Shown: in pieces, positions 1,576 through 61,128 of the stretch
How positions within the stretch are numbered: position 1 is the first letter of the stretch
Layout of the letters: each line of letters begins with the position of its first letter
Source of the DNA: Bacteroidales bacterium
Lineage (GTDB): Bacteria; Bacteroidota; Bacteroidia; Bacteroidales; Tenuifilaceae
Direction: 5' to 3'
DNA: 64,000 nucleotides
NCBI GenBank assembly: GCA_041656735.1
Contig: JBBACY010000008.1
Coordinates: forward strand, 4,041-68,040
Program-made: the position numbers and the translations under genes
Notes under the pieces: model-generated
Database searches by the model: none
Told to the model about the DNA's origin: nothing
The model's input: the letters and a program-made list of their open reading frames with translations, nothing else

Positions 1576-2118
1576 AGGTATCTTTTTAATAATCAGCTGA
1601 ATAAAAAACTATCCCATTTTTACTAAAATTACTAAATATTTAATCAAAAAATAGAGTGTTACTGCTGTTTTTTATAGAATTGAATTAGATGCTTTAAAGC
1701 AAAGGGGTTGCACTGATTGCGAACATAGCTTAACAATAAAAACTAATGCACTGATAATTAGATGTATATAAAACGATAAAGGTTTCTCACTTTTCTATTT
1801 TATTGTTCACCAGAATATACACTTTTTCTATATTTGCTCGGAAATGAAACGAAAGATTGCTCGTTTTACTCTCGTATTCACCTGTTTACAGTCTTGCTTT
1901 TAACTAACCTAGTTCAGGCTTCTTGAGTTTTAAAACCTAAGTTTTCGCTTTTTCTAATTTTATGGGGCAACGTAGCTTCACCTGTGAAGTAGTAGGTAAT
2001 ATTAATGTTTTGCCTATGATTGTGGAGTATAATTCTACGCTAAATATAGAAAGTTCTGCAAGGTAAAATATTGTTATGCAGTATTTTATCTTGCAGGAAT
2101 ATGGGTTTACGACAAGGT

Positions 2119-3423
2119 TTACTTAAGGTACGTTGTAATAACTTTGCTAATTGCTCTTTGGCAAACGGGACAAAACCCATCGGCATCATTGCTGTGCATG
2201 CGGCAGTTTATATAAGGGCGATAAATACCCTTACTCATATACCCTCCGCCCTCGTACGCACCAATTGTGTTACTGTACTTTGGATTTGCAGGTGTTGGTA
2301 TAGGGGTGCTCTCGCTAACCATATCGGCCCATTTTGCCTTAAAGTTTACCATAGTGGTTATGTTGGGCTCCCATGGCTCAACAGATAGGTTGTAAAAATC
2401 TTGGTAAGCAACATCCGATGTGTAGTACTCGTCGGCAAGCCCCGCTAGTCCGTGCCCCAGCTCGTGTATAAATACTTCGTTTGTAAGAGGGTGGTCCGAA
2501 CTGGTAACGTTGTAATGATTGTAAATTCCGCCTCCGCCATACTTGTTGGTATTAACCAAAACGTACACTATGTCGGTTGGGGCGCTTGCAGCAGCGTCCA
2601 TCACCATTTTAAATTTAGTGGTTGTTAAATACCTATCTATTCCAAATGTATAAAACGATGAGTTTACGGCCGTTTTATTCCAAATATTTTTCCCTGGATT
2701 TGTTGGTCCTTCCGCTTCAGAGGGCGATTCGATGGCCCAAATGTTGATGCTGTTCTTGTGCTTGCTAAAAGGCTCTTGCGAGAATAGATATTCCGATAAT
2801 TTTGTAACATCGTTTCGGAATTTCTCCATTTGCTCGGCAGTGTATCCTTCGGCTATAAAAGATATGTCGAGCTTATCGTTGTGGTTGCCGCTGTTCAGTA
2901 TTTTAGAAACAGGATGCATTGCTGGCTGGTTATGGCTTATGTAAATGCTGGCGGGGTCTATTTCTAAGGTAACCAAATTGATGAAAAGTCCTGATTTTTC
3001 GCGACTTTTAAAGGTAACAACTACCTCTTGCTTTGGGAAGGGGATTCGCGTAACCTGTTCAAATGCTCTGGAAATAGTTTTGGCTTCCTCAATGGTTTGC
3101 CACTCTTGAAAAAGTGTGCAAAAACCTTTGGTGTAAAGCAATTTTTGGGTGTTCTTGTCACGCACCTCCACCATATACGACCCAAGGTTAAGGGTGTCAA
3201 TGGTTTGGGTGTGTGAGCCACTCCAGTAGGGCTCGTACTTTAGCTCATCCAGATAAAAGTTCTCGGAGTTACTATTGCCAGCTAAAAAGTAATCTATTCG
3301 TAGGGCCTTGTTGGTAAACCATTTATCGAAATCAATTTGGGCTTCAACCCTTACATTTCCTACTAAAATTAGTAATGCTGTTACCAAAAGTGAGGTAGTA
3401 GCATTCTTTGTGAATTGTATCAT
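2119..3423 (-). CDS. M64-family (IgA-peptidase-like) secreted metallopeptidase
   Basis: Signal peptide; M64 motifs FIAEGYT, YGGGG, HELGHGLAGLADEY, CRM, FCPVC. Confidence 0.88.
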   Translation of the reverse strand: MIQFTKNATTSLLVTALLILVGNVRVEAQIDFDKWFTNKALRIDYFLAGNSNSENFYLDELKYEPYWSGSHTQTIDTLNLGSYMVEVRDKNTQKLLYTKGFCTLFQEWQTIEEAKTISRAFEQVTRIPFPKQEVVVTFKSREKSGLFINLVTLEIDPASIYISHNQPAMHPVSKILNSGNHNDKLDISFIAEGYTAEQMEKFRNDVTKLSEYLFSQEPFSKHKNSINIWAIESPSEAEGPTNPGKNIWNKTAVNSSFYTFGIDRYLTTTKFKMVMDAAASAPTDIVYVLVNTNKYGGGGIYNHYNVTSSDHPLTNEVFIHELGHGLAGLADEYYTSDVAYQDFYNLSVEPWEPNITTMVNFKAKWADMVSESTPIPTPANPKYSNTIGAYEGGGYMSKGIYRPYINCRMHSNDADGFCPVCQRAISKVITTYLK

Positions 3424-3465
3424 TGAAAATTAGATTAAAGTAACAATTTTTAAAGTATAAATTTA

Positions 3466-4329
3466 TTACCCCAGGTAGCTTTTTAAAACTTTGCTTCGGG
3501 TTGCTAACTTCAGCCTTTTTATGGCTTTTTCTTTAATTTGCCGAACGCGCTCACGTGTAAGGTCAAGCTCTTCGCCAATTTCTTCGAGTGTGTGCTGGTG
3601 CTTTCCGTTTAGTCCAAAATATAGGCGAATTATTGATGCCTCGCGTGGTGTTAGTGTGGCCAAGGCTCGTTCAATTTCCTTTTTAAGGCTATCATTTAAA
3701 AGGCCTCTGTCGGGCGCAGGCATTTCGTTTGTAAGTAGTATGTCGTATAAGTTTCCATCCTCATCGGGTGAAATAGGCGCATCCATTGATATATGCCTGT
3801 TCGAACTTTTAAGGGCTTCCTTTATGTCGCCAGGAGCCAACTCAAGAACCTCGGAAAGTTCTTCGATTGAAGGCTCACGCTCAAATTGTTGCTCAAGTTT
3901 GGTAAATGCTCTGTTTACCTTATTTATTGAGCCAATTTTATTGAGAGGTAACTTAACTATGCGCGATTGTTCAGCAAGAGCTTGTAAAACAGCCTGTCTT
4001 ATCCACCATACAGCGTATGAAATGAATTTAAACCCCCTTGTTTCATCAAAACGTTGGGCCGCTTTTATTAGACCGAGATTTCCCTCATTTATTAAATCGG
4101 GTAGGCTAAGCCCCTGGTTTTGGTACTGCTTTGCTACAGATACAACAAACCTAAGGTTGGCTTTTATCAGATGGTCAAAGGCTGCTTTATCGCCCTCTTT
4201 TATTAGGCGAGCCAAGTTAACTTCTTCCTCGGTAGTCAGAAGTTCAACCTTTCCAATTTCGTGTAAGTACTTATCAAGCGATACGGTCTCTCTATTGGTA
4301 ACCTGCTTAATAATTTTGAGTTGTCTCAT
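3466..4329 (-). CDS. RpoD/SigA-family sigma factor, second paralogue (Bacteroidetes short type)
   Basis: MRQLKI...SLDKYL start, [46 protein letters not shown]; lacks region 1.1. Confidence 0.93.
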
Positions 4330-4600
4330 CGTGGCAACACCTTTCTATTAAATAACGGTTGAATATATACATTAATATTTTTGATATTACCAAATAGCGC
4401 ATGTTTTTTTTAGATTTGATACTTTTTATTTGAAATTTTGGTGTTTTAAATATTATTGGTTAACATTGCAAAATATTCCTAGCAATATAATTCTCGCAAT
4501 ACCCAAAAATCCAACGTGTTATAATCTCATTTCTCAGAATTTACATTCGTAATAACTTGCAGCTAATGCTAGTTGCTATAATTAACCATATAAAAATCGC

Positions 4601-6406
4601 ATGTACGATATTTTAGAACTAAATAAAAAGTTGCTTCCTGAACTGAAGGAAATAGCTAAAGGTATGAATATTAAAAAGATTGAGGCGCTTCGTAAGCAAG
4701 ATTTAATATATAGAATACTCGATCAACAGGCTATTGATGCAGCCGAAAGTGATAGCCGAAAGCCTAAATTAACCACAAAGGATAGGGACAAGGATAAGGA
4801 TACCGAAAGGCCCGAAAGAAAAACGATTAGCCCTAAGCCCAAGAAGCAGGAGCCTACACCGACTCCCATTGTGAAGAAAGAGATTAAGACCACCGCTGCT
4901 CGTCCTGAGCCTGAAGAGGTAAATACTCAGCCAGAGGATCAGCAAAATGCTAACGATCATCAATCTAATCAAAATAAGCGCAAACGCTTTATCAGAAAGA
5001 AAGATGAGCAGGATGAGCATCAAGGAAACCATCCAGAGAAAGCCAATGACCATTTGGTAGCTGCAGATGTGCAGAAAGAAGAAAAGGTAGAGAAGGCTGA
5101 GGTTGTTCGGGAGCGAGTGCTCGAAACGAAGGCGAACAAACCTAAAGAGGTAAAGACGGATAGCGTTGTTGACACCAAAAAAAATGACCCGCAGACTGGT
5201 GAGCAGGTGGCAGAGAATGTAAAGAAGAGTAATCCGCGTGATTTTCAGCAGAAAAAAGGTAAGAACGGAGAAAAGTATGAGTTTGAAGGTATAATAAATG
5301 CAACGGGTGTACTCGAAATTATGCCCGATGGTTATGGCTTTATGCGCTCATCTGATTATAATTACTTAACATCGCCCGACGATGTGTACGTTTCACAGTC
5401 GCAAATAAAACTCTTTGGCTTAAAAACTGGCGACACCGTAACAGGTACAATTCGCCCACCCAAAGAGAATGAAAAATATTTCCCTCTAATTAAGGTGCTC
5501 GAAATAAATGGTAGAAGTCCTGATTACATTCGCGACAGAATACCGTTCGACTACCTAACACCACTATTCCCCGACGAAAAGTTTACGTTACTAGGTAATG
5601 GTCAGAATTCACTCTCGGCTCGCGTGGTTGATATGTTTTCGCCAATTGGAAAGGGGCAGCGTGGTTTAATTGTTGCTCAGCCCAAAACGGGTAAAACCAT
5701 CCTGCTAAAAGAGATTGCTAACTCAATAGCTGCCAATCACCCCGAGGTATATATGATTGTTTTACTTATCGATGAGCGCCCCGAGGAGGTTACCGATATG
5801 GCCCGTAGCGTGAATGCCGAGGTGGTATCGTCAACCTTTGATGAGCCAGCCGACAGGCACGTTCGCGTAGCGAATATTGTGCTCGAAAAAGCCAAGCGAA
5901 TGGTAGAATGTGGCCACGATGTGGTTATCCTACTCGATTCAATTACACGACTAGCTCGCGCATATAATACCGTTCAGCCCGCATCGGGTAAGGTGCTATC
6001 GGGTGGGGTTGATGCTAACGCACTTCACAAACCTAAACGCTTTTTTGGCGCAGCCCGTAATATTGAGAACGGCGGCTCCCTTACAATTTTGGCAACAGCC
6101 CTTATTGAAACAGGAAGTAAAATGGACGAGGTTATTTTTGAAGAGTTTAAAGGAACTGGTAATATGGAGTTACAGCTCGATAGGAAGCTGTCTAATAAAC
6201 GTGTTTTCCCTGCTGTTGATATTACCGTTTCGAGTACACGTCGTGAGGACTTGTTACTTGATAAGGAAACTCTCAATAAAACGTGGATCCTTAGAAATTA
6301 CTTAACCGATATGACATCGGTTGAGGCTATGGAGTTCCTTCGCGATAGGTTGGTTAAAACTCAAACTAACGAGGAGTTCTTTATGACAATGAATAGCGAT
6401 ATTTAA
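4601..6406 (+). CDS. rho: Transcription termination factor Rho with long N-terminal insertion
   Basis: [11 protein letters not shown]-binding motif, [19 protein letters not shown] Walker [34 protein letters not shown]. Confidence 0.98.
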
Positions 6407-43137: not shown

Positions 43138-43998
43138 ATGAGACAACTGAAAATCACAAAATCGATTACTAATAGGGAGAGCGCTTCTCTTGATAAATAT
43201 CTGCAGGAGATAGGTAAGGAGGAACTTATTACCGTTGAGGAAGAGGTAGAGCTGGCGCAGCGTATTAAGAAGGGCGATCAGGAAGCACTAGAAAAGTTGA
43301 CCCGTGCTAATTTAAGGTTTGTGGTTTCTGTTGCTAAGCAGTATCAGAACCAGGGACTTAGTTTGCCCGACCTTATTAATGAGGGTAACCTTGGGTTAAT
43401 AAAAGCCGCCGAAAAGTTTGATGAAACTCGTGGTTTTAAGTTTATTTCGTATGCCGTTTGGTGGATTAGACAATCGATACTGCAGGCACTTGCGGAGCAA
43501 TCACGTATTGTAAGGCTTCCTCTTAATCAGGTTGGTTCACTTAATAAAATAAATAAGGCATTCTCTAAATTCGAGCAGCAATTCGAAAGAACTCCCTCGC
43601 CGGAGGAATTGGCCGAGATACTTGAATTACCAAAAGAGAAAGTTGCTGATACGTTGCGTGTGTCTGGTAGGCACGTATCAGTTGATGCTCCTTTTGTTGA
43701 TGGGGAAGAGAATAGTTTACTCGATGTGTTGGTTAATAGTGATTCGCCTAACGCCGACCGTGCACTGCTTAACGAATCGTTATGTCGTGAGATTGATCGT
43801 TCGCTAGCCACTCTAACTGAGCGCGAGCGTGATATTATTAAACTTTTTTTTGGAATTAGCTGTCAGGAGATGACGCTTGAAGAGATTGGCGAAAGGTTTG
43901 GATTAACACGCGAGCGTGTGCGTCAAATAAAAGAAAAGGCCATTAGACGATTAAGACATACGTCGAGGAGTAAGTTGTTGAAAGCATACTTAGGATAG
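43138..43998 (+). CDS. rpoD: Primary RNA polymerase sigma factor (Bacteroidetes RpoD)
   Basis: [22 protein letters not shown]; position after degP is the usual Bacteroidales arrangement; promoter TAACTTTG at 43003-43010. Confidence 0.93.
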
Positions 43999-50309: not shown

Positions 50310-51551
50310 GTGGATATATTTGATAAACTTAGACAAGGTATGGGGCCCATTGGTCAGTATCATAAAGAAGGGCATGGCTACTTTGCGTTTCCAAAACTAG
50401 AAGGCGAAATTAAACCGTGGATGACCTTTAGAGGTAAAGAGGTTTTAACCTGGAGTTTAAATAATTACCTCGGTTTGGCAAATCACCCTGAAGTGCGTAA
50501 GGCCGATGCCGAAGGGGCTGCTAAGTATGGTATGGCCTATCCAATGGGGGCACGAATGATGAGTGGGCAAACCAAACTCCACGAGGAACTTGAAGTAAAG
50601 CTTGCCGCTTTTGTTGGTAAACCAGCAGCATACTTATTAAACTATGGTTACCAGGGGATGGTTTCGATTATTGATTCGTTGGTATCGCGTAATGATGTGG
50701 TGGTTTACGATTCGGAGTCGCATGCTTGTATTATTGATGGGCTAAGGTTATTTCCCGGCAAACGCTTTGTATACGCACATAATGATATGGATAACCTGCG
50801 TAAGCAACTTACGCACGCAACTCGCCTTGCCGAAAAAACAGGAGGAGGAATACTTGTAATTACCGAAGGCGTTTTTGGAATGGCTGGCGACTTAGGTAAT
50901 TTGAAGGATATAGTTGCTTTTAAAAAGGAGTTTAGCTTCCGATTGCTAGTTGATGATGCGCATGGCTTTGGCACAATGGGTAAAACAGGATCTGGAGTAC
51001 CAGAGCATTTCGGAGTTCAAGATGAGGTGGATCTTCATTTTGCAACATTCGCGAAGAGCGGTGCGGGCATTGGTGCTTTTGTGGCGGCCGACGAGGATAT
51101 TATTAGGTATTTAGCTTATAATTTACGTTCGCAGATATTCGCAAAATCACTACCCATGCCTATGGTTGTTGGTGCTTTAAAACGACTAGAGGTAATGCAA
51201 TCGCAACCCGAGCTAAAGGAGAACCTTTGGAAAATTGTGGATGCTTTACAGAGCGGACTTAAGAAGGTTGGTTTGGATATTGGAGTAACCGAGTCGCCTG
51301 TTACACCAGTTTATATGAAGGGTAATGTGCCCGAAGCCACCAATATGGTTTTTGATTTGCGTGAGAACTACAATATTTTCTGTTCAATTGTGGTTTACCC
51401 AGTTGTTCCAAAGGGACAAATGCTATTACGCCTTATACCAACCGCTGTTCACACCCTCGAGGATGTTGAAATTACGATTAAAGCTTTTGCTGAGTGTGCG
51501 CAGAAGTTGAAGGATGGGAAGTATTACGCCGAAAAAATGTCGCAGATATAG
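50310..51551 (+). CDS. Alpha-oxoamine synthase family PLP enzyme, SulA/CapB-like cysteate C-acyltransferase candidate
   Basis: WSLNNYLGLA, MGARMMSGQT, HACIIDG, DDAHG, TFAKS (PLP Lys) and a second Lys 30 residues later in SQIFAKSLP; promoter TACTTTTG at 50263-50270. Confidence 0.8.
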   Translation: MDIFDKLRQGMGPIGQYHKEGHGYFAFPKLEGEIKPWMTFRGKEVLTWSLNNYLGLANHPEVRKADAEGAAKYGMAYPMGARMMSGQTKLHEELEVKLAAFVGKPAAYLLNYGYQGMVSIIDSLVSRNDVVVYDSESHACIIDGLRLFPGKRFVYAHNDMDNLRKQLTHATRLAEKTGGGILVITEGVFGMAGDLGNLKDIVAFKKEFSFRLLVDDAHGFGTMGKTGSGVPEHFGVQDEVDLHFATFAKSGAGIGAFVAADEDIIRYLAYNLRSQIFAKSLPMPMVVGALKRLEVMQSQPELKENLWKIVDALQSGLKKVGLDIGVTESPVTPVYMKGNVPEATNMVFDLRENYNIFCSIVVYPVVPKGQMLLRLIPTAVHTLEDVEITIKAFAECAQKLKDGKYYAEKMSQI

Positions 51552-51552
51552 A
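51422..51552 (+). repeat. Direct repeat copy 1 (3' end of the SulA-like gene)
   Basis: Ungapped match to 60941-61071 with 9 mismatches in 131 bp (manual alignment). Confidence 0.95.
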
Positions 51553-51740
51553 GTTGTAAAATGATTTTGTTTAGTTAATAAGATGTAATTTACTAGCCAA
51601 TTATAACTGCCATTTCTACTTACGTTTGGCTTCGTTCATTATATTTAATCAGGCTAACGGTAAGACTGAGTTACCTGCCTTGAGCGAAGGTGATTTAGAA
51701 GTATTGACTTGTTAATATACTAATGATACATATAAAGAGG

Positions 51741-51766
51741 AGGCTGTCTTTTTAGACAGCCTTTAT
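51741..51766 (+). terminator. Terminator hairpin after the SulA-like gene
   Basis: AGGCTGTCT-TTTT-AGACAGCCT followed by TTATT. Confidence 0.7.
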
Positions 51767-51905: not shown

Positions 51906-52904
51906 ATGATTCGTGTTTGGCTTAAAGCGCTTAGGGTTATCCCAAAAGTTTCAAAACAAGAATGGGATAGTTACGATATCGTTTCAAGGTGGCTTATTTC
52001 AACCCGTGCCGCCGTTTTTATTATGACTGGACTTGCCGCAGCCATTGGTGGTTTGCTGGCATATCGATCGGGGAGTTTTTCTTGGCCCATCTTTTTACTC
52101 ACATTCTTCGGCTTAATCTTTGCCCATGCCACCAATAATCTATTAAACGATTATGTTGACTTTACAAAGGGTGTTGATAAGGATAATTATTTTCGTGCTC
52201 TCTACGGCCCACACCCACTCGAAAATGGTTTTCTCACCAAGAATCGTTTTATAACCTATATTGTTGTAACCGGGTTACTTGCTTTAGTGGCAGGGCTTGC
52301 CATTACCTATTTGGTTGGTTTGCAAACACTGTGGCTGCTTGTTCCTGGACTTTTTTTCTTGCTTTTTTACACCTGGCCACTAAAATACTATGGACTGGGC
52401 GAAATTTCGGTAGTTCTTGTTTGGGGGCCATTAATGATTGGCGGAAGCTATTTTGTTGTATCGGGTGGAGAATGGAGTAACTGGGTGGCATTGGTTAGCC
52501 TAGTGTATGCCTTTGGTCCAACAACGGTGCTGTTGGGCAAGCACGCCGATAAACTAGAGGCCGATAAGGCTAAAAACATCCATACTATTCCGGTTTTAAT
52601 TGGCCAAAAAGCTTCGCGCTACTCAATCATTGTACTTTGGGTAATTCAGTATGCCTTAGTAGCCTTTTTTGTTATAACGGGTCAGCTGGGGCCAGCAGTA
52701 CTATTGGTTTTACTATCAATACCAAAGTTTATTCAAATGACCAAGGTTATGCTCCAAAAACGACCAGAAGTGCAACCTGAGGGCAAAGAGGGGATAGGCT
52801 GGCCATTGTATTTGGTTAGTAGAGCATTCGTGTTTAACCGATCGTTTGGAATGCTGTTCCTGTTGGGTTTAATTGCCGATGTTATTATTCTGAAATTTTT
52901 CTAG
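51906..52904 (+). CDS. UbiA-superfamily prenyltransferase, MenA-like
   Basis: Multi-TM protein; first Asp-rich motif HATNNLLNDYVDFTKGVD, FYTWPLKYYGLGE; divergent second motif KHADKLEADK. Confidence 0.8.
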   Translation: MIRVWLKALRVIPKVSKQEWDSYDIVSRWLISTRAAVFIMTGLAAAIGGLLAYRSGSFSWPIFLLTFFGLIFAHATNNLLNDYVDFTKGVDKDNYFRALYGPHPLENGFLTKNRFITYIVVTGLLALVAGLAITYLVGLQTLWLLVPGLFFLLFYTWPLKYYGLGEISVVLVWGPLMIGGSYFVVSGGEWSNWVALVSLVYAFGPTTVLLGKHADKLEADKAKNIHTIPVLIGQKASRYSIIVLWVIQYALVAFFVITGQLGPAVLLVLLSIPKFIQMTKVMLQKRPEVQPEGKEGIGWPLYLVSRAFVFNRSFGMLFLLGLIADVIILKFF

Positions 52905-53028
52905 TGATAATTCAACCGCTTAAGTTATAACTGACGTATAGTGTGAAGCTCATTGCCTTTATAAATACAAAAACGGTTTATTGTTTATGTATATAGAGGT
53001 TTTTTAGTGCCCTTTAATATTCTTATTT

Positions 53029-54624
53029 ATGATAAACGCAGCCACAACAGTAATCAAAACCAACATAAAAAGGAGGTCTGACTCATTTGTTGAGAACTAT
53101 AAGGAAACTCAGATAATTATGGAAGAGTTTAAAACAGCAACATCTGCAGTTCTCAACAGAAACAACGATAGCTATGTGGTTAAGCACAGGGCAAAGGGTA
53201 AGATGACTGCCCGCGAGCGTGTTGATAGTTTAATTGATAAGAATACTACATTTTTCGAATTCTCAACCTTAGCTGCAAATGGACTTTACGATAATAAATT
53301 TCATAGTGCCGGAATTATTACTGGCATTGGTGTAATTCAGGGTATTGAGTCCATTATTATTGCAAACGACCCAACAGTAAAAGGAGGAACCTACGTAAAA
53401 GAAACGATTAAGAAACATCTTAGGGCTCAGGAGGTTGCACTTAATAACCATTTACCCTGTGTTTATATTGTTGAGTCGGGTGGAATATTTCTACCCGAAC
53501 AGGCTAATGTTTTTGCTGATCATGACCACTTTGGCAAAATATTTTACAACCAATCCAAGTTATCTGCTGCGGGTATTCCTCAAATTGCAATGGTTATGGG
53601 TTCTTGTACTGCTGGTGGTGCGTACATTCCTGCCATGAGCGACGAATCGATAATTGTTGATAAGCAAGGAACCATATTCCTTGCGGGGCCACCGCTTGTT
53701 AAAGCCGCTATTGGAGAAGAAGTAACTGCCGAGGATCTCGGCGGAGCCTATGTGCATACCCACATTTCGGGTGTAGCCGATCATTTTGCAAAAACAGAGG
53801 CTGATGCCATTCAAACGTGCCGAAATATTTTTGAGTACCTCCCAAAGCCTCGCAAGCATAGTAACAAATCCGAAAGTTTTGAGAAGCCACTATACTCTAT
53901 GGATGAGCTTTATGGGGTAATACACTCTCAAACTTCTCGCTGGATAGACCCATACGAAATTATTGCTCGGGTTGTTGATGGTAGTAAATTTCAGGAGTTT
54001 AAACCCAGCTATGGAAAAACCATAGTTACAGGCTTTGCTAAAATTATGGGGCAAACCATTGGGGTTATTGCCAATAACGGTGTGCTTTTTTCCGAGTCGG
54101 CGCTTAAGGCTACGCATTTTATTGAGATGTGTAGTATTCGAAAAATACCACTCGTTTTTTTGCATAATATAACGGGTTTTATGGTTGGTAAAAGTGCCGA
54201 ACAAAAAGGTATTGCAAAAGACGGAGCCAAAATGGTGCATGCGGTTGCCAATGCAAATGTTCCAAAAATCACCATCGTCTTTGGCCGCTCGCACGGTGCG
54301 GGCAACTATGCAATGGCAGGCCGTGCCTATAAACCTACACTACTTTTTGCATGGCCTAACTCCAAAATTTCAGTTATGGGAGGTCGTCAGGCAGCTGAGG
54401 TTCTCGGTAGCGTAAAGCAGAAAGGCGTTGAAGATATTGATGAGTTTAAAAAAGAAATCATAAAGCGTTACGAAGATGAAGCATCGGCTTACTTTGGCAC
54501 TGCGCGCCTTTGGGACGATGGTATTATCGATCCTGTGGATACACGAAAAGCAATTGCCTTGGGTTTATCTATTGCTGCTAACAAAGAAGTTCCGCATTAC
54601 AAGCCCGGTATTTATAGAATGTAA
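53029..54624 (+). CDS. Acyl-CoA carboxylase carboxyltransferase, methylcrotonyl-CoA carboxylase beta (LiuB-like)
   Basis: ANDPTVKGGTY, ESGGIFLP, GSCTAGGAY, FLAGPPLVKAA, NITGFMVG, GAGNYAMAGRAY, ARLWDDGIIDP. Confidence 0.9.
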   Translation: MINAATTVIKTNIKRRSDSFVENYKETQIIMEEFKTATSAVLNRNNDSYVVKHRAKGKMTARERVDSLIDKNTTFFEFSTLAANGLYDNKFHSAGIITGIGVIQGIESIIIANDPTVKGGTYVKETIKKHLRAQEVALNNHLPCVYIVESGGIFLPEQANVFADHDHFGKIFYNQSKLSAAGIPQIAMVMGSCTAGGAYIPAMSDESIIVDKQGTIFLAGPPLVKAAIGEEVTAEDLGGAYVHTHISGVADHFAKTEADAIQTCRNIFEYLPKPRKHSNKSESFEKPLYSMDELYGVIHSQTSRWIDPYEIIARVVDGSKFQEFKPSYGKTIVTGFAKIMGQTIGVIANNGVLFSESALKATHFIEMCSIRKIPLVFLHNITGFMVGKSAEQKGIAKDGAKMVHAVANANVPKITIVFGRSHGAGNYAMAGRAYKPTLLFAWPNSKISVMGGRQAAEVLGSVKQKGVEDIDEFKKEIIKRYEDEASAYFGTARLWDDGIIDPVDTRKAIALGLSIAANKEVPHYKPGIYRM

Positions 54625-54629
54625 AAAGT

Positions 54630-55433
54630 ATGGATAGTTACAACGAGATATGCATTGATACTAAAGGTGGTGTAACCACAATTTGGCTTAATAAACCAGA
54701 TTTGCATAATGCTGTAAGTATTCAGATGCTAGAAGAGTTGACCGATTGCTTTCACTCCATTGAGCAAATGGATAACGTTAGGGTCATCGTTTTAAGAGGT
54801 AAGGGTAAGTCGTTTAGTGCTGGTGCCAATCTTGTTAATATGCTTGCAGTTAGCAAGTCAGGTTACGAGCAAAACCTTGACGATGGGTACAAGTGGACTA
54901 GTTGTTTAAGTTCAATTGCAAGTTCAAGTAAGCCAACTATTGCCATTGCAACGGGCAACGTATTTGGCGGAGGGAATGGGCTTCTGGCAGCTGCCGATAT
55001 GGTGATTGCCGATGAGAATGCAATATTTTCGTTCTCAGAGGTGAAACTAGGTCTTGCCCCCTCAACAATATTACCTTATGTGTTAACTCGTGTTAACCAG
55101 CAAAAGGCTAAGTACCTAATGCTTACAGGCAAAAGATTTAGCGCAGCCGAAGGGTACGACTATGGTCTTGTTGATTTTTTAACACCCTCCGAAAAGATTG
55201 AAGCATTATTGAACTCAATCATCGCCGATTTACGTAAAGCTTCTCCCAGCGGGATTAAGGAAATTAAACGATTGATAAGGGAACTTGGACATTGCTCTAA
55301 CATTGATGAGGTAAACAACCTAACGGCCAACTCCATTGCCACTTTAAAAACATCTACAGAGGCTCAGGAGGGCATTAGCGCATTTATTGAAAAACGGAAG
55401 CCTTACTGGCTAGTTGAAAATGAAAACGAATAA
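54630..55433 (+). CDS. Crotonase-family enzyme, methylglutaconyl-CoA hydratase (LiuC-like)
   Basis: LNKPDLHNA, FSAGANL, GGGNGL (no first Glu) and FSEVKLGLAP (second Glu), as in bacterial LiuC-type hydratases; EAQEGISAFIEKRKP. Confidence 0.8.
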   Translation: MDSYNEICIDTKGGVTTIWLNKPDLHNAVSIQMLEELTDCFHSIEQMDNVRVIVLRGKGKSFSAGANLVNMLAVSKSGYEQNLDDGYKWTSCLSSIASSSKPTIAIATGNVFGGGNGLLAAADMVIADENAIFSFSEVKLGLAPSTILPYVLTRVNQQKAKYLMLTGKRFSAAEGYDYGLVDFLTPSEKIEALLNSIIADLRKASPSGIKEIKRLIRELGHCSNIDEVNNLTANSIATLKTSTEAQEGISAFIEKRKPYWLVENENE

Positions 55434-55454
55434 GATAATCTGAAAGATAAGAAT

Positions 55455-56597
55455 ATGCATCATCCATTAATAAACAAACAGCATAATGACCTTCGTGAAC
55501 AAGTTCGTATTTTTGCTGAAAAGGAGATAAAGCCATTGGCTCAAGGGCTCGATGAACGAAGCGAGTTTTCGGTTGAACTAACCAAAGCGATGGGTAAAAT
55601 TGGACTCTTCGGAATGAACCTACCTGTGGAGTTTGGCGGTCGAAATCTCGACACCCTTTCATACATCATCGCCGTTGAGGAGTTGGCGCGGGTTGATAGT
55701 TCCCAGGCGGCTACTATGGCTGCCCATAATTCGTTGGGAATTACTCCAATTTACAAGTACGGCAATAGTGAGCAGCAAAAACGTTTGCTGCCTAGTTTAA
55801 CCTCAGGCGAAGGCGTTTGGGCATTTGGTTTAACCGAGCCCAATGCTGGTTCTGATGCCCGAGCCATTGAAACTACAGCGCTTCTTAAAACCAATCAATG
55901 GGTTGTAAATGGTCAAAAGATATTTATAACCAACTCGGCATCAGAGTTATCCAAGGGAGTAACTCTATTGGCCAACACAAGCGATAAGGAGGGTCAAAAG
56001 GAATTCTCAGCCATTATTGTCGAGAGGGAGGTATCAGAATACAAAGCAGAACCAATTCATAATAAGATGGTTTGGCGGGCTGCCGATACGGGGCTGTTAA
56101 CATTTAATAATACCATTGTTCCAGAACAAAATTTGCTTGGCGAGCGTGGAAGAGGGATGCATTATATGTTGGAAACCTTAGATTCTGGTAGACTTTCAAT
56201 TGCTGCAGTTGGACTTGGTTTGGCGCAAGGAGCATTCGAAATGGCGAATGCGTATGCTAAAAAAAGGCATCAGTTTGGCAAGTCACTATCGAAAATTCAC
56301 GCTATTTCCGATAAGTTAGCCGAAATGGATATTAAGCTCGAATTGGCAAGAAACTACCTTTACTACAGCTGTTGGCTAAAGGATAATAACCTGCCTTTTA
56401 AAAAGCAGGCTGCCATCTCGAAACTATATACATCCGAAATTGCTAAGCAGATAGCCGACGAAGCCGTTCAGATTTTTGGCGGTTACGGACTGTTTAAAAA
56501 TAATGATATTGAGCGTTTTTACCGCGACCAGCGTATTCTGGGTATTGGAGAAGGAACTACAGAAATTTTGAAATTGGTGATTGCCAGGAGTATATAA
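55455..56597 (+). CDS. Acyl-CoA dehydrogenase (short/branched-chain type)
   Basis: FGLTEPNAGSDA, NGQKIFITN, RLSIAA, AVQIFGGYG, RFYRDQRILGIGEGTTEI. Confidence 0.92.
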   Translation: MHHPLINKQHNDLREQVRIFAEKEIKPLAQGLDERSEFSVELTKAMGKIGLFGMNLPVEFGGRNLDTLSYIIAVEELARVDSSQAATMAAHNSLGITPIYKYGNSEQQKRLLPSLTSGEGVWAFGLTEPNAGSDARAIETTALLKTNQWVVNGQKIFITNSASELSKGVTLLANTSDKEGQKEFSAIIVEREVSEYKAEPIHNKMVWRAADTGLLTFNNTIVPEQNLLGERGRGMHYMLETLDSGRLSIAAVGLGLAQGAFEMANAYAKKRHQFGKSLSKIHAISDKLAEMDIKLELARNYLYYSCWLKDNNLPFKKQAAISKLYTSEIAKQIADEAVQIFGGYGLFKNNDIERFYRDQRILGIGEGTTEILKLVIARSI

Positions 56598-56658
56598 CTT
56601 TTTCAAAGAAGAAACTCAGGCTTTCGGGGTAAAAACATAATTTACAGAGTTGTTAACT

Positions 56659-57966
56659 ATGAGTAATTCACAATATATTAACGGATTTTCAAAGCTAAGC
56701 AACAGCGAAAAAATCTCGATTATTGTTTCGCGTACTAACATTGCTATTGAACAGTTTAATGTGCTGAACCAATTTAAACTACAAAATACTGAAATACAGA
56801 AGCAGCTAAATGAGATTAGCGAAAACGTAGTATCCAACTATATGCTGCCTTTTAGCATAGCTCCTAACTTTATGGTGAATGGCAAGGCTTACTTTGTGCC
56901 AATGGTTATTGAGGAAAGTTCTGTAGTTGCTGCTGCATCGGCTGCGGCAAAATTTTGGTTCAATCGGGGTGGGTTTGTTGCCAAGGTAATTTCTACCATA
57001 AAGGTAGGGCAGGTGCATTTTAGGTGGCTGGACAATTCAAAGCAATTGAAATCAGAATTTGAAAACATTAAAGAGCGATTGATAGCAAGTTCCTCGCATT
57101 TGCTCGAGAATATGCGAAGGCGCAATGGGGGTATTGTTGATATTGAATTGATTGATTTTACCAATAAACTTGAGAACTACTACCAGGTAAGGGTTAAGTT
57201 TGAAACTGCCGATGCAATGGGAGCCAACATTATCAATTCGGTTCTTGAAGAGATGGCGCAGGCGTTAAAACAATATTTTTTTGAGCATTTTAGCGATGCT
57301 GAATCCGAATGCGACATTGTAATGGCAATTCTATCAAACCATACCCCCGAGAGCATTGTTGAGTGCTATGTTGAGTGTGATATTGATGATTTGGCGGAAA
57401 TTTCAGGCGAGCTATCGCCAATGGAATATGCTCAAAAATTTAAGCTGGCCGTTGATATTGCAAACGTCGATATTTACAGGGCTACAACCCACAATAAAGG
57501 AATCTACAATGGGGTTGATGCCGTTGTACTGGCTACCGGAAACGATTTTCGTGCGGTTGAGGCTTGTGGTCACTCTTACGCTGCCCGAAATGGGTACTAC
57601 AAAAGTTTAACAACTGTAGATATCGATAAGGGCAAATTTCGATATACGCTTCGTATTCCTATGGCACTGGGAACGGTGGGGGGATTAACCAATCTTCACC
57701 CCTTGGCAAAACTCTCGCTCGATATTTTGGGTAAGCCATCGGCTAAAGAGCTAATGGCAATAGTTGCAGCAGCAGGACTTGCAAATACATTTTCGGCAGT
57801 TCGGGCGCTTACTACCTCCGGAATTCAGAAGGGACATATGCGATTTCATCTAAATAATATTTTAAGTTTGCTAAACGCAACCAATGATCAGAAAGAGCGG
57901 GCAGAGGAGTACTTTAAAAACAGGAAGGTTTCGCATAAATCTGTACAAGAATTTCTAGGAAGTTAA
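56659..57966 (+). CDS. mvaA: Class II HMG-CoA reductase
   Basis: ENVVS, PMVIEESSVVAA (Glu), DAMGAN, THNKGIYNG (Lys), GNDFRA (Asp), IQKGHM (His); ATG 56659 (ORF track starts at TTG 56650). Confidence 0.95.
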   Translation: MSNSQYINGFSKLSNSEKISIIVSRTNIAIEQFNVLNQFKLQNTEIQKQLNEISENVVSNYMLPFSIAPNFMVNGKAYFVPMVIEESSVVAAASAAAKFWFNRGGFVAKVISTIKVGQVHFRWLDNSKQLKSEFENIKERLIASSSHLLENMRRRNGGIVDIELIDFTNKLENYYQVRVKFETADAMGANIINSVLEEMAQALKQYFFEHFSDAESECDIVMAILSNHTPESIVECYVECDIDDLAEISGELSPMEYAQKFKLAVDIANVDIYRATTHNKGIYNGVDAVVLATGNDFRAVEACGHSYAARNGYYKSLTTVDIDKGKFRYTLRIPMALGTVGGLTNLHPLAKLSLDILGKPSAKELMAIVAAAGLANTFSAVRALTTSGIQKGHMRFHLNNILSLLNATNDQKERAEEYFKNRKVSHKSVQEFLGS

Positions 57967-58006
57967 ATCTATTCTTTCTGTTTTGCATAACTAATAGTTT
58001 CATTCA

Positions 58007-58924
58007 ATGTACGCTAAATTCTACGCCCACGGAAAGCTTCTTATCACGGGTGAGTACTTTGTACTTGCAGGTGCCAAAGCATTTGCACTGCCCCTTAAAC
58101 TTGGCCAAAGTTTGCAGGTTGCGGAGGTAGAGGGCGATAGTAGGATTATAAAATGGCAAACCACCGTACAGGGTAGTAGCTGGTTTTCTGCGGAGTTTAA
58201 ACTTGATGATTTTTCGATTATCAACACAAACAGAATAAAATCAGCAGAGTACATTCAACTTTTATTAATCTATATTAATCAAAAAAGTTTGGTCTTCAGA
58301 AACTTAAAAAGACAGTTAATACTTGCGGCTAATGTTGATTTTCCAATGGATTGGGGCTTGGGTAGCAGCTCAACGCTAATATCAAACTTGGCAAATTGGG
58401 CGGGCATAGACCCATACAGTATGCTGTTTGCCGTTTCCAAAGGGTCGGGTTACGATATTGCTTGCGCCACCGCAAAAGGGCCAATACTATATAGTAATTT
58501 GGTTAAACCTACGGTAGAAAAGGCGTGTTTCAATCCCAGTTTCGGCGAGAACCTTTACTTTGTTTATTTGGAAAGAAAGCAGGATACAGCAATAAGCATC
58601 AATTTGGTAGGTTCTAAAATTTTTGAGCAAAAGGATGAGGCAAAAAGAATTACAGAGCTTGCCAAACTTGTGATAAACTCCAAAAGTCTTGATGAGTTTA
58701 ATGGCTATTTAAATGAGCACGAGGAAATTGTGTCGAGGGCAATAGGTTTGCCAACGGTTAAGTCAGAGCTGTTTAATGATTTTACAGGAACTGTAAAATC
58801 GTTGGGTGCTTGGGGTGGCGACTTTGTTTTAGCCACTCATCGTGGGACAGTCGATGATGTTGTTAACTACTTTAAACAAAAGGGTTACAGCGTAATACTC
58901 AAATATAATGATATTGTGCTATGA
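58007..58924 (+). CDS. GYDIA-type GHMP kinase, phosphomevalonate kinase candidate
   Basis: HGKLLITGEY, WGLGSSST, SGYDIAC, KSLGAWGGDF. Confidence 0.8.
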   Translation: MYAKFYAHGKLLITGEYFVLAGAKAFALPLKLGQSLQVAEVEGDSRIIKWQTTVQGSSWFSAEFKLDDFSIINTNRIKSAEYIQLLLIYINQKSLVFRNLKRQLILAANVDFPMDWGLGSSSTLISNLANWAGIDPYSMLFAVSKGSGYDIACATAKGPILYSNLVKPTVEKACFNPSFGENLYFVYLERKQDTAISINLVGSKIFEQKDEAKRITELAKLVINSKSLDEFNGYLNEHEEIVSRAIGLPTVKSELFNDFTGTVKSLGAWGGDFVLATHRGTVDDVVNYFKQKGYSVILKYNDIVL

Positions 58925-60024
58925 GCCATTTGCCACAAAGCAAAAAGTATTTAAAGGATGCCGAAAGCCTTACGTTTTTTGAGCTTTCCAGTCCTAAAAG
59001 TGTAGGTTGGGAAAGCCCATCGAATATTGCATTGGTAAAGTATTGGGGCAAGTATGGCGAGCAGCTGCCTCAGAATCCTTCGTTAAGTTTCACGCTTAAG
59101 CATTCTAAAACCATTACCCGAATTGAATATCAAAAGAAGCAGAAAGAATTGCCATTGCTTGAATACTATTTTGAGCAGAAGCAAAATATTGAATTTGAAG
59201 ATAAGGTTCGAAAATACCTTGACAGAATTTCAATTTACATTCCTTTTATAAAGAGACTTGATTTACTTATATACAGCCAAAATACGTTTCCGCATTCGGC
59301 AGGTATTGCCTCTTCGGCATCGGCATATAGCGCATTGGCGCTATGTTTATGCAGTATTGAGAATGAGTTATTTGGCAAGCTCAATGATACCCGTAAGTTT
59401 CTCCAAAAAGCATCGTTTTTGGCACGGTTGGGGTCGGGTAGCGCTTGTCGTTCAACCTATGGCGAGTTGGTTCTCTGGGGCGAAACCAAGAGTGTAAAAG
59501 GTTCGAGTAATGAGTCTGCCATTGAATTGAGAAGCGAAGTAAATTCTGTTTTCAAAAACTATTTTGATGCAATTCTCATAATCGACTCGGGCAAAAAGGA
59601 GCTTTCCAGCACCCTCGGGCACGGTTTAATGCAAAACCATCCATTTGCTACTGCTCGGTACGAGCAGGCTAGGCAAAATTTAGATAAAATTTTAGAAAGT
59701 CTAAAGATGGGCGACGAGCGGAATTTTGCTCAGATTGTTGAGAACGAGGCAATTACGCTGCACGCCCTACTTCTGTCATCGGTTCCATCGGTCTCGCTAC
59801 TTAAGCCAAACACGCTAGTGGCTCTCGAGAGGTTAAAGGCTTTTAGAACGAGTAGTCAACTTAATTTCACCTTTACGCTCGATGCAGGTGCCAATATCCA
59901 CATACTTTATAAAGCCTCAATTAGGACACAAATGGTTGATTTTATTACAAGTAACCTAACAGAACTATGTGAGAATGGACTTTGGATTGATGATGAAATT
60001 TCTACAGGACCCAATAAACTATAA
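58921..60024 (+). CDS. mvaD: Diphosphomevalonate decarboxylase
   Basis: SPSNIALVKYWGK, FPHSAGIASSAS, RLGSGSACRS, FTLDAGAN; ATGA overlap with the upstream kinase. Confidence 0.93.
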   Translation: MSHLPQSKKYLKDAESLTFFELSSPKSVGWESPSNIALVKYWGKYGEQLPQNPSLSFTLKHSKTITRIEYQKKQKELPLLEYYFEQKQNIEFEDKVRKYLDRISIYIPFIKRLDLLIYSQNTFPHSAGIASSASAYSALALCLCSIENELFGKLNDTRKFLQKASFLARLGSGSACRSTYGELVLWGETKSVKGSSNESAIELRSEVNSVFKNYFDAILIIDSGKKELSSTLGHGLMQNHPFATARYEQARQNLDKILESLKMGDERNFAQIVENEAITLHALLLSSVPSVSLLKPNTLVALERLKAFRTSSQLNFTFTLDAGANIHILYKASIRTQMVDFITSNLTELCENGLWIDDEISTGPNKL

Positions 60025-60036
60025 CCATACAAATTT

Positions 60037-60906
60037 GTGAAATACTTCAATTCTAAAATATTGCTATTTGGCGAGCATACGGTTCTCTATGGTTCCGATG
60101 CATTGCTAATGCCATTTTCAGGTTTTTCGGGTAAGTTCGATTTTATTTCAAATAATCAGTGCAACGACGACAAGTTGGTATCACACAAAATACTAGTTGC
60201 ATTTTCAGAATTCGTTGAGAAATCAGATTTTGCAAATCTTTTTAATAGTTCGCAGATTGCTTCGGAACTCAGCAAGGGACTTTACTTTAACTCTAATATC
60301 CCCATAGGTTATGGTGTAGGGAGTTCGGGTGCGATGGTAGCCGCATTTTATCGCAAATTTAAAATTGAGAAGGAAGAGAGGGAAATTGAAGAGGTACGAA
60401 GGATACTTGCTGAGCTTGAATCCTATTTCCACGGGACCAGCTCAGGCCTCGACCCATTGGTTAGCTATCTGAATAAACCATTACATAAAAGCAATAATGT
60501 AAATCAGGTGGATATTGAACTTTCTCCATTCAATGCATTTATAGTTGACACGGATATCTCCCGTTCTACGCAAAATCTGGTAAATGATTTTAAAGCTAAA
60601 GCAGGAGTTTCTGATTTTGAAAATTTGGTAATACCAGCTATCGTAAAAAGTACAAACGGATGCATTAAAGCAATTCTGAATGCAGATTTTGACGATTTCT
60701 TTTCTAACCTAAGGGAGCTATCCGCTTTACAATTTCAGCATCTGCAAGAATTTATCCCAGTCGATTATCGCTTTCTATGGAAAAAGGGGCTTAATACCGA
60801 TGGCTTTTACCTTAAACTATGCGGTGCGGGTGGTGGTGGGTACATTTTAGGGTTTGCTAAAAAATCTAGCGGACTGCCTAAAAGCAAGAAACTAATTATA
60901 TTGTAG
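60037..60906 (+). CDS. mvk: Mevalonate kinase
   Basis: KILLFGEH, SNIPIGYGVGSSGA, HGTSSGLD, KLCGAGGGG; GTG start. Confidence 0.85.
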   Translation: MKYFNSKILLFGEHTVLYGSDALLMPFSGFSGKFDFISNNQCNDDKLVSHKILVAFSEFVEKSDFANLFNSSQIASELSKGLYFNSNIPIGYGVGSSGAMVAAFYRKFKIEKEEREIEEVRRILAELESYFHGTSSGLDPLVSYLNKPLHKSNNVNQVDIELSPFNAFIVDTDISRSTQNLVNDFKAKAGVSDFENLVIPAIVKSTNGCIKAILNADFDDFFSNLRELSALQFQHLQEFIPVDYRFLWKKGLNTDGFYLKLCGAGGGGYILGFAKKSSGLPKSKKLIIL

Positions 60907-60940
60907 CCTTTATTCACCCAATTGTTTTAAAGCCTCAAAA

Positions 60941-61071
60941 GCTATTGCGCCTTATACCAACCGCTGTACACACCCTCGAGGATGTTGAAATCACGATTAA
61001 TTTTTTTGCTGAGTGAGCGCAGAAGTTGAAGGATGGGAAGTATTACGTCGAAAAAATGCCGCAGATATAGA
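60941..61071 (+). pseudogene. Direct repeat copy 2: detached, decaying 3' end of the SulA-like gene
   Basis: 122/131 identical to 51422-51552; TGT(Cys) changed to TGA in frame; no upstream gene body. Confidence 0.92.
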
Positions 61072-61098
61072 TTTTTAAACACTATTAATACATACAAA

Positions 61099-61128
61099 GA
61101 GAGAGGGTGCTAGCTAGCACCCTCTCTC
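61099..61128 (-). terminator. Perfect 30-bp palindrome, probable terminator of the S41 peptidase
   Basis: GAGAGAGGGTGCTAG/CTAGCACCCTCTCTC; followed by TTTGTAT on the minus strand. Confidence 0.7.

Follow-up and report, generated by a model that had tools for sequence, protein, structure and literature searches.

A candidate leucine-to-mevalonate gene cassette in Bacteroidales that joins Liu-type enzymes to the Bacteroidota mevalonate operon

A 64-kb stretch of Bacteroidales DNA (contig JBBACY010000008.1; the whole stretch is hereafter called the window) carries Liu-type genes, of the kind that degrade leucine, directly upstream of genes for the mevalonate (mva) pathway. Judging from gene content and order, the block at positions 51906 to 60906 is probably a self-contained cassette that couples a trimmed Liu module to a Bacteroidota-type mevalonate pathway, leading from leucine or isovalerate to 3-hydroxy-3-methylglutaryl-CoA (HMG-CoA). 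This arrangement suggests that isoprenoids may be built from leucine or isovalerate instead of acetyl-CoA. In the proposed route, isovaleryl-CoA (from leucine or external isovalerate) would be oxidized to 3-methylcrotonyl-CoA by an acyl-CoA dehydrogenase (ACAD) bearing the motif IGEGT. A carboxyltransferase (CT), using carboxybiotin from a biotin carboxylase/biotin carboxyl carrier protein (BCCP) or another carrier encoded elsewhere, would then form 3-methylglutaconyl-CoA, which a LiuC-like enoyl-CoA hydratase (ECH) would hydrate to HMG-CoA. Without a lyase, a class II HMG-CoA reductase (HMGR) would reduce HMG-CoA to mevalonate, and mevalonate kinase (MVK) and a GYDIA-family kinase serving as phosphomevalonate kinase (PMK), together with diphosphomevalonate decarboxylase (MVD), would carry it to isopentenyl diphosphate (IPP). 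Sister clades add type 2 IPP isomerase (IDI2) within the operon, and a prenyltransferase gene heads the block. We infer the substrates, the direction of flow, a biotin subunit acting in trans, and the share of cellular HMG-CoA that passes through the cassette.

An earlier reading made from the sequence alone had claimed seven co-oriented plus-strand genes between 53029 and 60906, and the open reading frame (ORF) coordinates and gaps agree (Table 1). From CT to MVK, the intergenic gaps are 5, 21, 61, 40, −4, and 12 nt, the 61-nt ACAD-HMGR gap being counted from the ATG at 56659 that is the start in the public gene call; the ORF opens at a TTG at 56650. The seven family labels of that reading were likewise all supported by Pfam, NCBIfam, and homologue scores, those of ECH, MVD, and MVK at values under the equivalog cut-offs. 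It did not mention the UbiA-family gene, which lies directly 5′ of CT in 11 loci (76 to 96% identity) and is missing from that position in Perlabentimonas gracilis-type loci and in loci L027 and L057. The UbiA-family protein is MenA-like but scores only ~80 bits against NCBIfam MenA models, whose cut-offs are at least 264. IDI2 is not among the window genes.

The linkage of Liu-like and mva genes recurred across related loci in a survey of synteny, a check that the sequence-only reading had proposed. The order (UbiA)-CT-ECH-ACAD-(IDI2)-HMGR-GYDIA-MVD-MVK was found in 13 of 13 genome loci with upstream DNA and, when metagenomes were included, in 15 loci with upstream DNA (68 to 98% HMGR identity). 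The same order was found in the distant locus L027 and in one JGI contig (HMGR, 56 to 57% identity; CT, 64 to 65%). Where Liu-like genes were not seen (L006, L007, L015, and L020), the contig ends just upstream. At least six different flanks surround the conserved block: a serine palmitoyltransferase (SPT)-like gene and a tricorn protease gene in the window; a symporter, a CoA-transferase, and a β-ketoacyl-ACP synthase III (KAS III) fragment in L004; an unknown gene and CorA in L005; a downstream menFDBAC cluster in P. gracilis; his genes in L016; and rubredoxin and an aminotransferase in L027. On this evidence of gene order, the Liu-mva linkage is not due to chance.

As a control, we used 80 loci across phyla that encode the beta subunit of methylcrotonyl-CoA carboxylase (MCC-β). 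These came from a metagenome scan with a CT alignment, whose patterns are shared by all MCC-β proteins, and are mostly non-Bacteroidota. The alpha subunit (MCC-α) was encoded nearby in 44 of the 80 and a lyase-like gene in 23, and HMGR was present only at L057; L046 ends after IDI2. Because HMGR occurred at a single locus among the 80, its linkage to MCC-β is lineage specific and selected. One operon of the Bacteroidales type, with 70 to 80% identity to the window, was found on a contig labelled "MAG: Thiohalospira sp.," a gammaproteobacterial metagenome-assembled genome (MAG) (L012; JBKHIH010000008.1); this contig was probably mis-binned.

Three architectures were distinguished among these relatives. 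Type A is catabolic, with the order CT-ECH-MCCα-HMGL-HMGL-ACAD, where HMGL is HMG-CoA lyase (L030 and L032). In a variant of it, L026, CT-ECH is followed by a 5S-type carboxyltransferase fused to a biotinyl domain and then by ACAD, with two HMGL-like genes alongside, and a partial form, CT-ECH-MCCα, is seen in L025 (Saccharicrinis). Type B, CT-ECH-MCCα-ACAD-IDI2-HMGR-GYDIA-MVD-MVK, is carried by the 320-kb contig L057, and L046 is identical as far as its contig end. Type C is the same minus the alpha subunit and comprises the window and 16 other loci. Type A proteins share 59 to 62% (CT) and 58 to 59% (ACAD) identity with those of the window, and no mva genes accompany them in L030, L032, or L026. 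HMGR and lyase-like genes are mutually exclusive in Type A, B, and C loci. Since Type A has lyases without mva genes and Types B and C the reverse, the lyase and HMGR are alternatives at one place. The sequence-only reading had held that the lyase is replaced by HMGR. This idea is borne out by the gene layouts of Type A versus Types B and C. Other parts of that reading are less secure: the ACAD is not a canonical isovaleryl-CoA dehydrogenase (IVD), and CT lacks a biotin partner in the window. The L057 alpha subunit retains intact Biotin_carb_N, ATP-grasp, Biotin_carb_C, and Biotin_lipoyl domains. Because an ATP-dependent biotin carboxylase sits inside the Type B liu-mva operon, the flow would be carboxylative; the L057 enzyme thus argues for ATP-driven carboxylation toward HMG-CoA.

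The earlier statement that HMG-CoA synthase (HMGS), thiolase, and HMG-CoA lyase are missing held for the window, as none was found among the ~50 ORFs scanned. Probes for these three enzymes and for MCC-α gave no tblastn match in the window at an E value of ≤0.01; the Staphylococcus aureus MvaS probe had first been checked against PDB 1XPK (869 bits), and archaeal-type HMGS and thiolase probes were also used. HMGS, thiolase, and lyase were also not found within 10 kb in 22 related loci (360 kb). Two candidates for an unrecognized source of HMG-CoA were rejected. The 331-aa product of a gene that separates ACAD from HMGR in 11 sister loci was considered as an HMGS substitute; it has no Pfam match and was identified by a PDB search as IDI2 (1vcf, 115 bits). 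A KAS III-like ORF upstream in L004, considered as a cryptic HMG-CoA-forming enzyme, is truncated (N-terminal part only) and FabH-like, and it is shared neither by the window nor by other loci. HMGS is reported missing from some Flavobacterium and Hyunsoonleella genomes, and the source of HMG-CoA in HMGS-less, mevalonate-dependent Flavobacteriaceae was left unexplained (PMC12016392, PMC13506255). A different arrangement is found in another phylum: in L038 (7325 to 15593; 64% GC), an archaeal-type trio of HMGS, thiolase, and DUF35 (OB/zinc-ribbon) genes lies directly 5′ of MCCβ-ECH-MCCα-ACAD, so that both routes to HMG-CoA would be present in one cluster. The trio is similarly placed in L033, L035, and L071.

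HMGR and the GYDIA kinase exceed their model cut-offs, and MVK and MVD fall under theirs (Table 1), but their Pfam domains are the expected ones and the gene order is conserved. According to PMC6107057, which cites Hayakawa 2017, such scores are typical of divergent Bacteroidetes MVK and PMVK proteins, and enzyme activities are known only for the flavobacterial (Flavobacterium johnsoniae) homologues. Which of the two kinases, GYDIA or MVK, takes which phosphorylation step is a matter on which we infer only. The HMGR-GYDIA-MVD-MVK core was present in all Bacteroidota loci examined, including other Bacteroidota at ~55% HMGR identity that have no Liu-like genes or HMGS nearby. Because IDI2 lies between ACAD and HMGR in the sister loci, the Liu-like genes are embedded inside the isoprenoid operon and not merely beside it. 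In P. gracilis (L009, 14847 to 20440), menF, menD, menB, menA, and a menC-like gene lie directly 3′ of the mevalonate operon on the same strand, which suggests that menaquinone may be a main sink of IPP in this organism.

By score, the window ACAD stands outside the LiuA/IVD family (325 bits against short-chain acyl-CoA dehydrogenase/butyryl-CoA dehydrogenase [SCAD/Bcd] versus ~200 bits against IVD). Its C-terminal motif, IGEGT, keeps the Glu typical of medium-chain acyl-CoA dehydrogenase, in contrast to IGAGT in IVD, and has Gly where straight-chain ACADs have Tyr (IYEGT). Of its five closest solved homologues, four have IYEGT and one, a Thermus enzyme (PDB 1ws9), has IGEGT. Every Type A, B, or C orthologue of the window ACAD has IGEGT, and orthologues at 58 to 61% identity sit in MCC-α/lyase clusters. 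Among the control loci, MCC-adjacent ACADs carry IGAGT (12 loci) or IGEGT (L035, L036, and L038), and the second ACADs of the same loci carry IYEGT. Gly in place of Tyr (the Tyr375 equivalent) in IVD (IGAGT) is said, in work by Tiffany et al. in 1997, to leave space for the 3-methyl branch. Because this IVD-like Gly is universal in the orthologues and in MCC-linked ACADs, we read the window ACAD as a probable isovaleryl-CoA dehydrogenase; it may represent a second sequence type (IGEGT) of this enzyme.

The window CT clearly belongs, by its sequence scores, to the MCC-β type: human MCCB gives 604 bits and Pseudomonas aeruginosa MCC-β 566, versus 411 for the geranyl-CoA carboxylase beta subunit and ~270 for the propionyl-CoA carboxylase beta subunit. 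Its motifs are invariant in the CT alignment. At 75 to 97% identity across Type C clades, CT is the best-conserved protein of the operon and so is under strong constraint. ECH lies directly 3′ of CT in all Type A, B, and C loci, matching the Pseudomonas liuB-liuC order, and its best NCBIfam models are γ-carboxygeranoyl-CoA hydratase (AtuE type, 205 bits) and PRK07468 (200 bits), both under cut-off. MCC-α (biotin carboxylase/BCCP) was found neither in the 64-kb window nor in the 22 related loci, a point that the sequence-only reading had overlooked; because nowhere in the window is there a partner that could carry biotin for CT, the route is incomplete as encoded. MCC-α was found in the relatives L025, L030, L032, L057, and L046. 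One alpha subunit can serve several acyl-CoA carboxylase beta subunits, as mycobacterial AccA3 does, and by analogy the orphan CT could be served by a shared alpha subunit or by a transcarboxylase-type biotin subunit. Instead of MCC-α, L026 (7789 to 21324 of a 3.7-Mb contig) encodes a 725-aa protein in which HMGL-like, PYC_OADA, and biotinyl domains are fused. This protein is of the 5S transcarboxylase/oxaloacetate decarboxylase alpha type and would imply that 3-methylcrotonyl-CoA is transcarboxylated without ATP. Next to the L026 Liu-like cluster lie genes for an IcmF-like fused mutase and an acetate-kinase-like protein.

Several points weigh against the proposed coupling. The cassette itself does not encode the key carboxylation step, since neither the window nor the 10 kb around any Type C locus has a biotin carboxylase/BCCP gene. 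ECH falls under every curated equivalog cut-off, and ACAD is nearer to SCAD/Bcd enzymes than to canonical IVD; in anaerobes, SCAD/Bcd enzymes usually act as enoyl-CoA reductases. RNA sequencing (RNA-seq) contigs from mud, compost, and food-fermentation runs span the CT/ECH, ECH/ACAD, ACAD/HMGR, HMGR/GYDIA, and MVD/MVK junctions. These contigs have 2- to 3-fold depth and come from related strains, and contigs of 32 and 78 kb in the same runs suggest DNA carry-over; they thus give a weak indication of co-transcription. The searches covered the window and related loci, and HMGS, a lyase, and the genes of the methylerythritol phosphate (MEP) pathway may lie elsewhere in the genome. Finally, Elizabethkingia and several flavobacteria have all mevalonate pathway enzymes except PMK, and HMGS is present in many Flavobacteriaceae (PMC4026382).

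The Liu-like and mva genes might be co-located without any replacement: thiolase and HMGS encoded elsewhere would give most of the HMG-CoA, a lyase encoded elsewhere would complete leucine catabolism, and the cassette would be a salvage side-entry or mere co-regulation. Several Bacteroidota do possess HMGS (PMC4026382), and the relatives at ~55% HMGR identity imply that the source of HMG-CoA is often encoded at a distance in this phylum. We nevertheless consider this explanation rather unlikely: the Type A lyase genes are consistently absent from Type B and C loci, gene order is preserved over deep divergence and relocation of the block, and IDI2 and prenyltransferase genes are interleaved with the Liu-like genes. 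A flow in the opposite direction, like that of the Myxococcus AIB route, is disfavored further. Here HMGS elsewhere would supply HMG-CoA that branches both to mevalonate and, through ECH, CT (working with a biotin carrier) as a 3-methylglutaconyl-CoA decarboxylase, and ACAD as a reductase, to isovaleryl-CoA as the primer of iso-C15 fatty acids, which are typical of Bacteroidales. In favor of this reading, the ATP-dependent alpha subunit is missing from Type C operons, the nearest relatives of ACAD are Bcd/SCAD-type enzymes, the hosts come from anaerobic habitats (landfill, digesters, and gut), and the HMGS-thiolase-DUF35 trio does stand 5′ of MCC genes in other phyla (L038). Myxococcus does make isovaleryl-CoA from HMG-CoA by the AIB route (PMC5389471). 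Both branches would need HMGS, however, and it is encoded in none of the 17 or more operons, and the biotin carboxylase of Type B operons is complete; for these two reasons, we regard the reverse direction as improbable, though less clearly so for Type C. The orthologous ACADs, moreover, share catabolic oxidative clusters with lyase genes, AibA/B- and AibC-type proteins are absent, and peptide degraders, as which the window peptidases would mark the host, should have ample leucine-derived isovaleryl-CoA.

A different substrate for CT, ECH, and ACAD is the least probable explanation, and we think it very improbable. The three enzymes might act on an Atu-like geranyl-CoA route or recycle dimethylallyl or prenol units through 3-methylcrotonyl-CoA (a "mevalonate shunt"), as the AtuE-type hydratase model that scores best with ECH and the noncanonical ACAD would allow. 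The AtuE and PRK07468 models are near-equal and both under cut-off, however, and CT scores far better against MCC-β than against the geranyl-CoA carboxylase beta subunit. Adjacency to HMGR would make sense only if the product were HMG-CoA, and the Gly of IGEGT suits a short 3-methyl-branched substrate. The favored reading thus remains carbon flow from leucine or isovalerate into mevalonate, and its stronger forms are held with less confidence. Strict independence from HMGS is doubtful. It is likewise only tentatively suggested that HMGS and the MEP pathway are both missing from these Bacteroidales, and perhaps from other HMGS-less Bacteroidota, and that all their isoprenoids (the menaquinone side chain and undecaprenol) are made from leucine or scavenged isovalerate through the cassette. 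In that case the orphan MCC-β would be charged by a shared or noncanonical carrier, possibly an ATP-independent transcarboxylase of the 5S type seen in L026.

With the Pseudomonas-type liu cluster (liuA, IVD; liuB, MCC-β; liuC, hydratase; liuD, MCC-α; liuE, lyase) and with Type A loci, the cassette shares CT followed by ECH, an ACAD in the operon, and the chemistry from isovaleryl-CoA to HMG-CoA. Unlike the liu cluster, the window has neither MCC-α nor a lyase, and its ACAD belongs to the SCAD/Bcd lineage and carries IGEGT, the IVD motif being IGAGT with the catalytic Glu at another site in the protein; the operon ends in HMGR and the lower mevalonate genes, which would make it anabolic and not ketogenic. 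The HMGR-GYDIA-MVD-MVK core is shared with the Bacteroidota mevalonate pathway. In the flavobacterial pathway as described, however, thiolase and HMGS are the assumed source of HMG-CoA, while the window has three Liu-type genes 5′ of HMGR (joined by MCC-α in L057) and no HMGS nearby. Leucine carbon enters isoprenoids or sterols through HMG-CoA in Leishmania mexicana, Halobacterium salinarum (PMC8791446), and Trypanosoma brucei (PMC5993337). The carbon flow proposed for the cassette is the same and bypasses acetyl-CoA; the leucine shunt in those organisms is known from isotope labelling, with HMGS present and the genes unlinked, whereas the cassette is a single bacterial operon known from its genes alone. 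The Myxococcus xanthus AIB operon (aibA/aibB, aibC, and mvaS, with liuC) likewise ties HMG-CoA to isovaleryl-CoA through 3-methylglutaconyl-CoA and 3-methylcrotonyl-CoA. AIB runs from HMG-CoA to isovaleryl-CoA, however, with HMGS, a CoA-transferase-like decarboxylase, and an MDR-type reductase in place of a biotin-dependent CT and a flavin ACAD, and no CoA-transferase-family, MDR-type reductase, or HMGS ORF was found in or beside the window operon. In our view, the cassette is probably a hard-wired form of the "leucine shunt" into mevalonate.

In the searchable literature, we found no account of a bacterial operon fusing Liu enzymes to the mevalonate pathway. If the proposal is true, this would be the first leucine shunt in bacteria to be built into an operon and not deduced from labelling, and it offers a testable answer to where HMGS-less, mevalonate-dependent Bacteroidota get their HMG-CoA. 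It predicts that synthesis of menaquinone and of the cell wall carrier lipid is tied to amino acid fermentation in widespread Bacteroidales of digesters, landfills, and the gut. Diverting isovaleryl-CoA would save a peptide fermenter three acetyl-CoA per C5 unit, and if all isoprenoids came from leucine, their synthesis would depend strictly on branched-chain precursors of peptide fermentation. IGEGT would define a second sequence type of isovaleryl-CoA dehydrogenase, and the orphan MCC-β raises the question of its biotin carrier. For engineering, the nine-gene Type B module of L057 would be a compact C5-to-C5 supply of terpenoid precursors that avoids acetyl-CoA.

Table 1. Genes of the candidate cassette and the repeats and hairpins around it (window positions)
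Feature	Position	Strand	Evidence or remark
Terminator-like hairpin, 11 pairs	51739-51764	+	After SPT-like gene; left edge of block
Direct repeat, copy 1, 167 nt	51394-51560		Last part of SPT/BioF-like gene plus 9 nt beyond it
UbiA-family prenyltransferase, 332 aa	51906-52904	+	Pfam UbiA 110 bits; first gene of block, accessory
CT, MCC-β (LiuB) type, 531 aa	53029-54624	+	Pfam Carboxyl_trans 484 bits
ECH, LiuC/AtuE group; probable 3-methylglutaconyl-CoA hydratase	54630-55433	+	Crotonase fold; NCBIfam
ACAD, SCAD/Bcd-like, IGEGT; probable isovaleryl-CoA dehydrogenase, non-LiuA type	55455-56597	+	All three Pfam ACAD domains
HMGR, class II, 435 aa from ATG	56659-57966	+	Pfam 295 bits; TIGR00532 280 bits (cut-off 260)
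GYDIA-family GHMP kinase; probable Bacteroidota-type phosphomevalonate kinase	58007-58924	+	NF040656 331 bits (cut-off 225)
MVD, diphosphomevalonate decarboxylase-like, 367 aa	58921-60024	+	Pfam MVD-like_N 119 bits and MDD_C; TIGR01240 149 bits (cut-off 171); overlaps GYDIA gene by 4 nt
MVK, mevalonate kinase-like GHMP kinase, 289 aa	60037-60906	+	GHMP_kinases_N; TIGR00549 97 bits (cut-off 163)
Direct repeat, copy 2, 167 nt	60913-61079		Noncoding relic (stops in frame) of SPT-like gene 3′ end, right after MVK stop
Palindromic terminator-like hairpin, strong, 13 pairs	61099-61128		Between convergent MVK and tricorn-protease genes; right edge

Terminator-like hairpins mark both edges of the block, and no strong terminator was found inside it; the total hairpin count is at chance level. 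The Bacteroidetes promoter consensus TTTG...TAnnTTTG had no match near the operon (6 found in the window versus 4.7 expected), and a sigma-70 promoter scan was also at chance level.

The block from UbiA to MVK is bracketed by two repeat copies that are 89% identical. In L004, which is 95.5% identical to the window, homology starts only at 51764, and the genes upstream differ. Because of the bracketing repeat and this edge of homology, the cassette appears to have been relocated as a unit; the block has apparently moved as one piece. The 167-nt direct repeat accounts for a "goes back 9441" joint in RNA contigs that had been considered as a sign of a circular or duplicated form.

Directly upstream of the block lies the SPT/BioF-like gene (50310 to 51551), whose product is a BioF/Kbl-family α-oxoamine synthase whose best NCBIfam match is the CFB-group serine palmitoyltransferase model (319 bits; cut-off, 640); the gene may serve sphingolipid synthesis. 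In L004 (MAG JAQUJY01; 98% HMGR identity), positions 486 to 5056, directly upstream of the operon, carry on the operon strand genes for a sodium:solute symporter, a butyryl-CoA:acetate CoA-transferase-like protein, and a KAS III-like protein, and an uncharacterized ORF of 273 aa, which is also found upstream in L005 and L008. At this single locus, isovalerate could be imported by the predicted transporter and activated by the CoA-transferase.

The window is part of a 95-kb metagenome contig, and its host is a Tenuifilaceae-related member of the Bacteroidales sampled in landfill and wastewater. The closest genomes by HMGR are uncultured Bacteroidales MAGs (98 and 84% identity), followed by Tenuifilaceae, including the isolate P. 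gracilis M08_MB (L009; 73%). Metagenomes from landfill, wastewater, bioreactors, manure, and pig gut contain near-identical DNA. The window encodes peptidases of the M64, M3, M20, DPP-IV/S9, HtrA, and tricorn/S41 families as well as a protein sorted by the type IX secretion system, a gene content that fits a peptide-degrading anaerobe as the putative host. The window also contains two similar full-length RpoD-type sigma-70 genes, at 3466 to 4329 on the minus strand and 43138 to 43998 on the plus strand, which encode proteins of 287 and 286 aa with the same four Pfam regions and lie no more than 40 kb apart.

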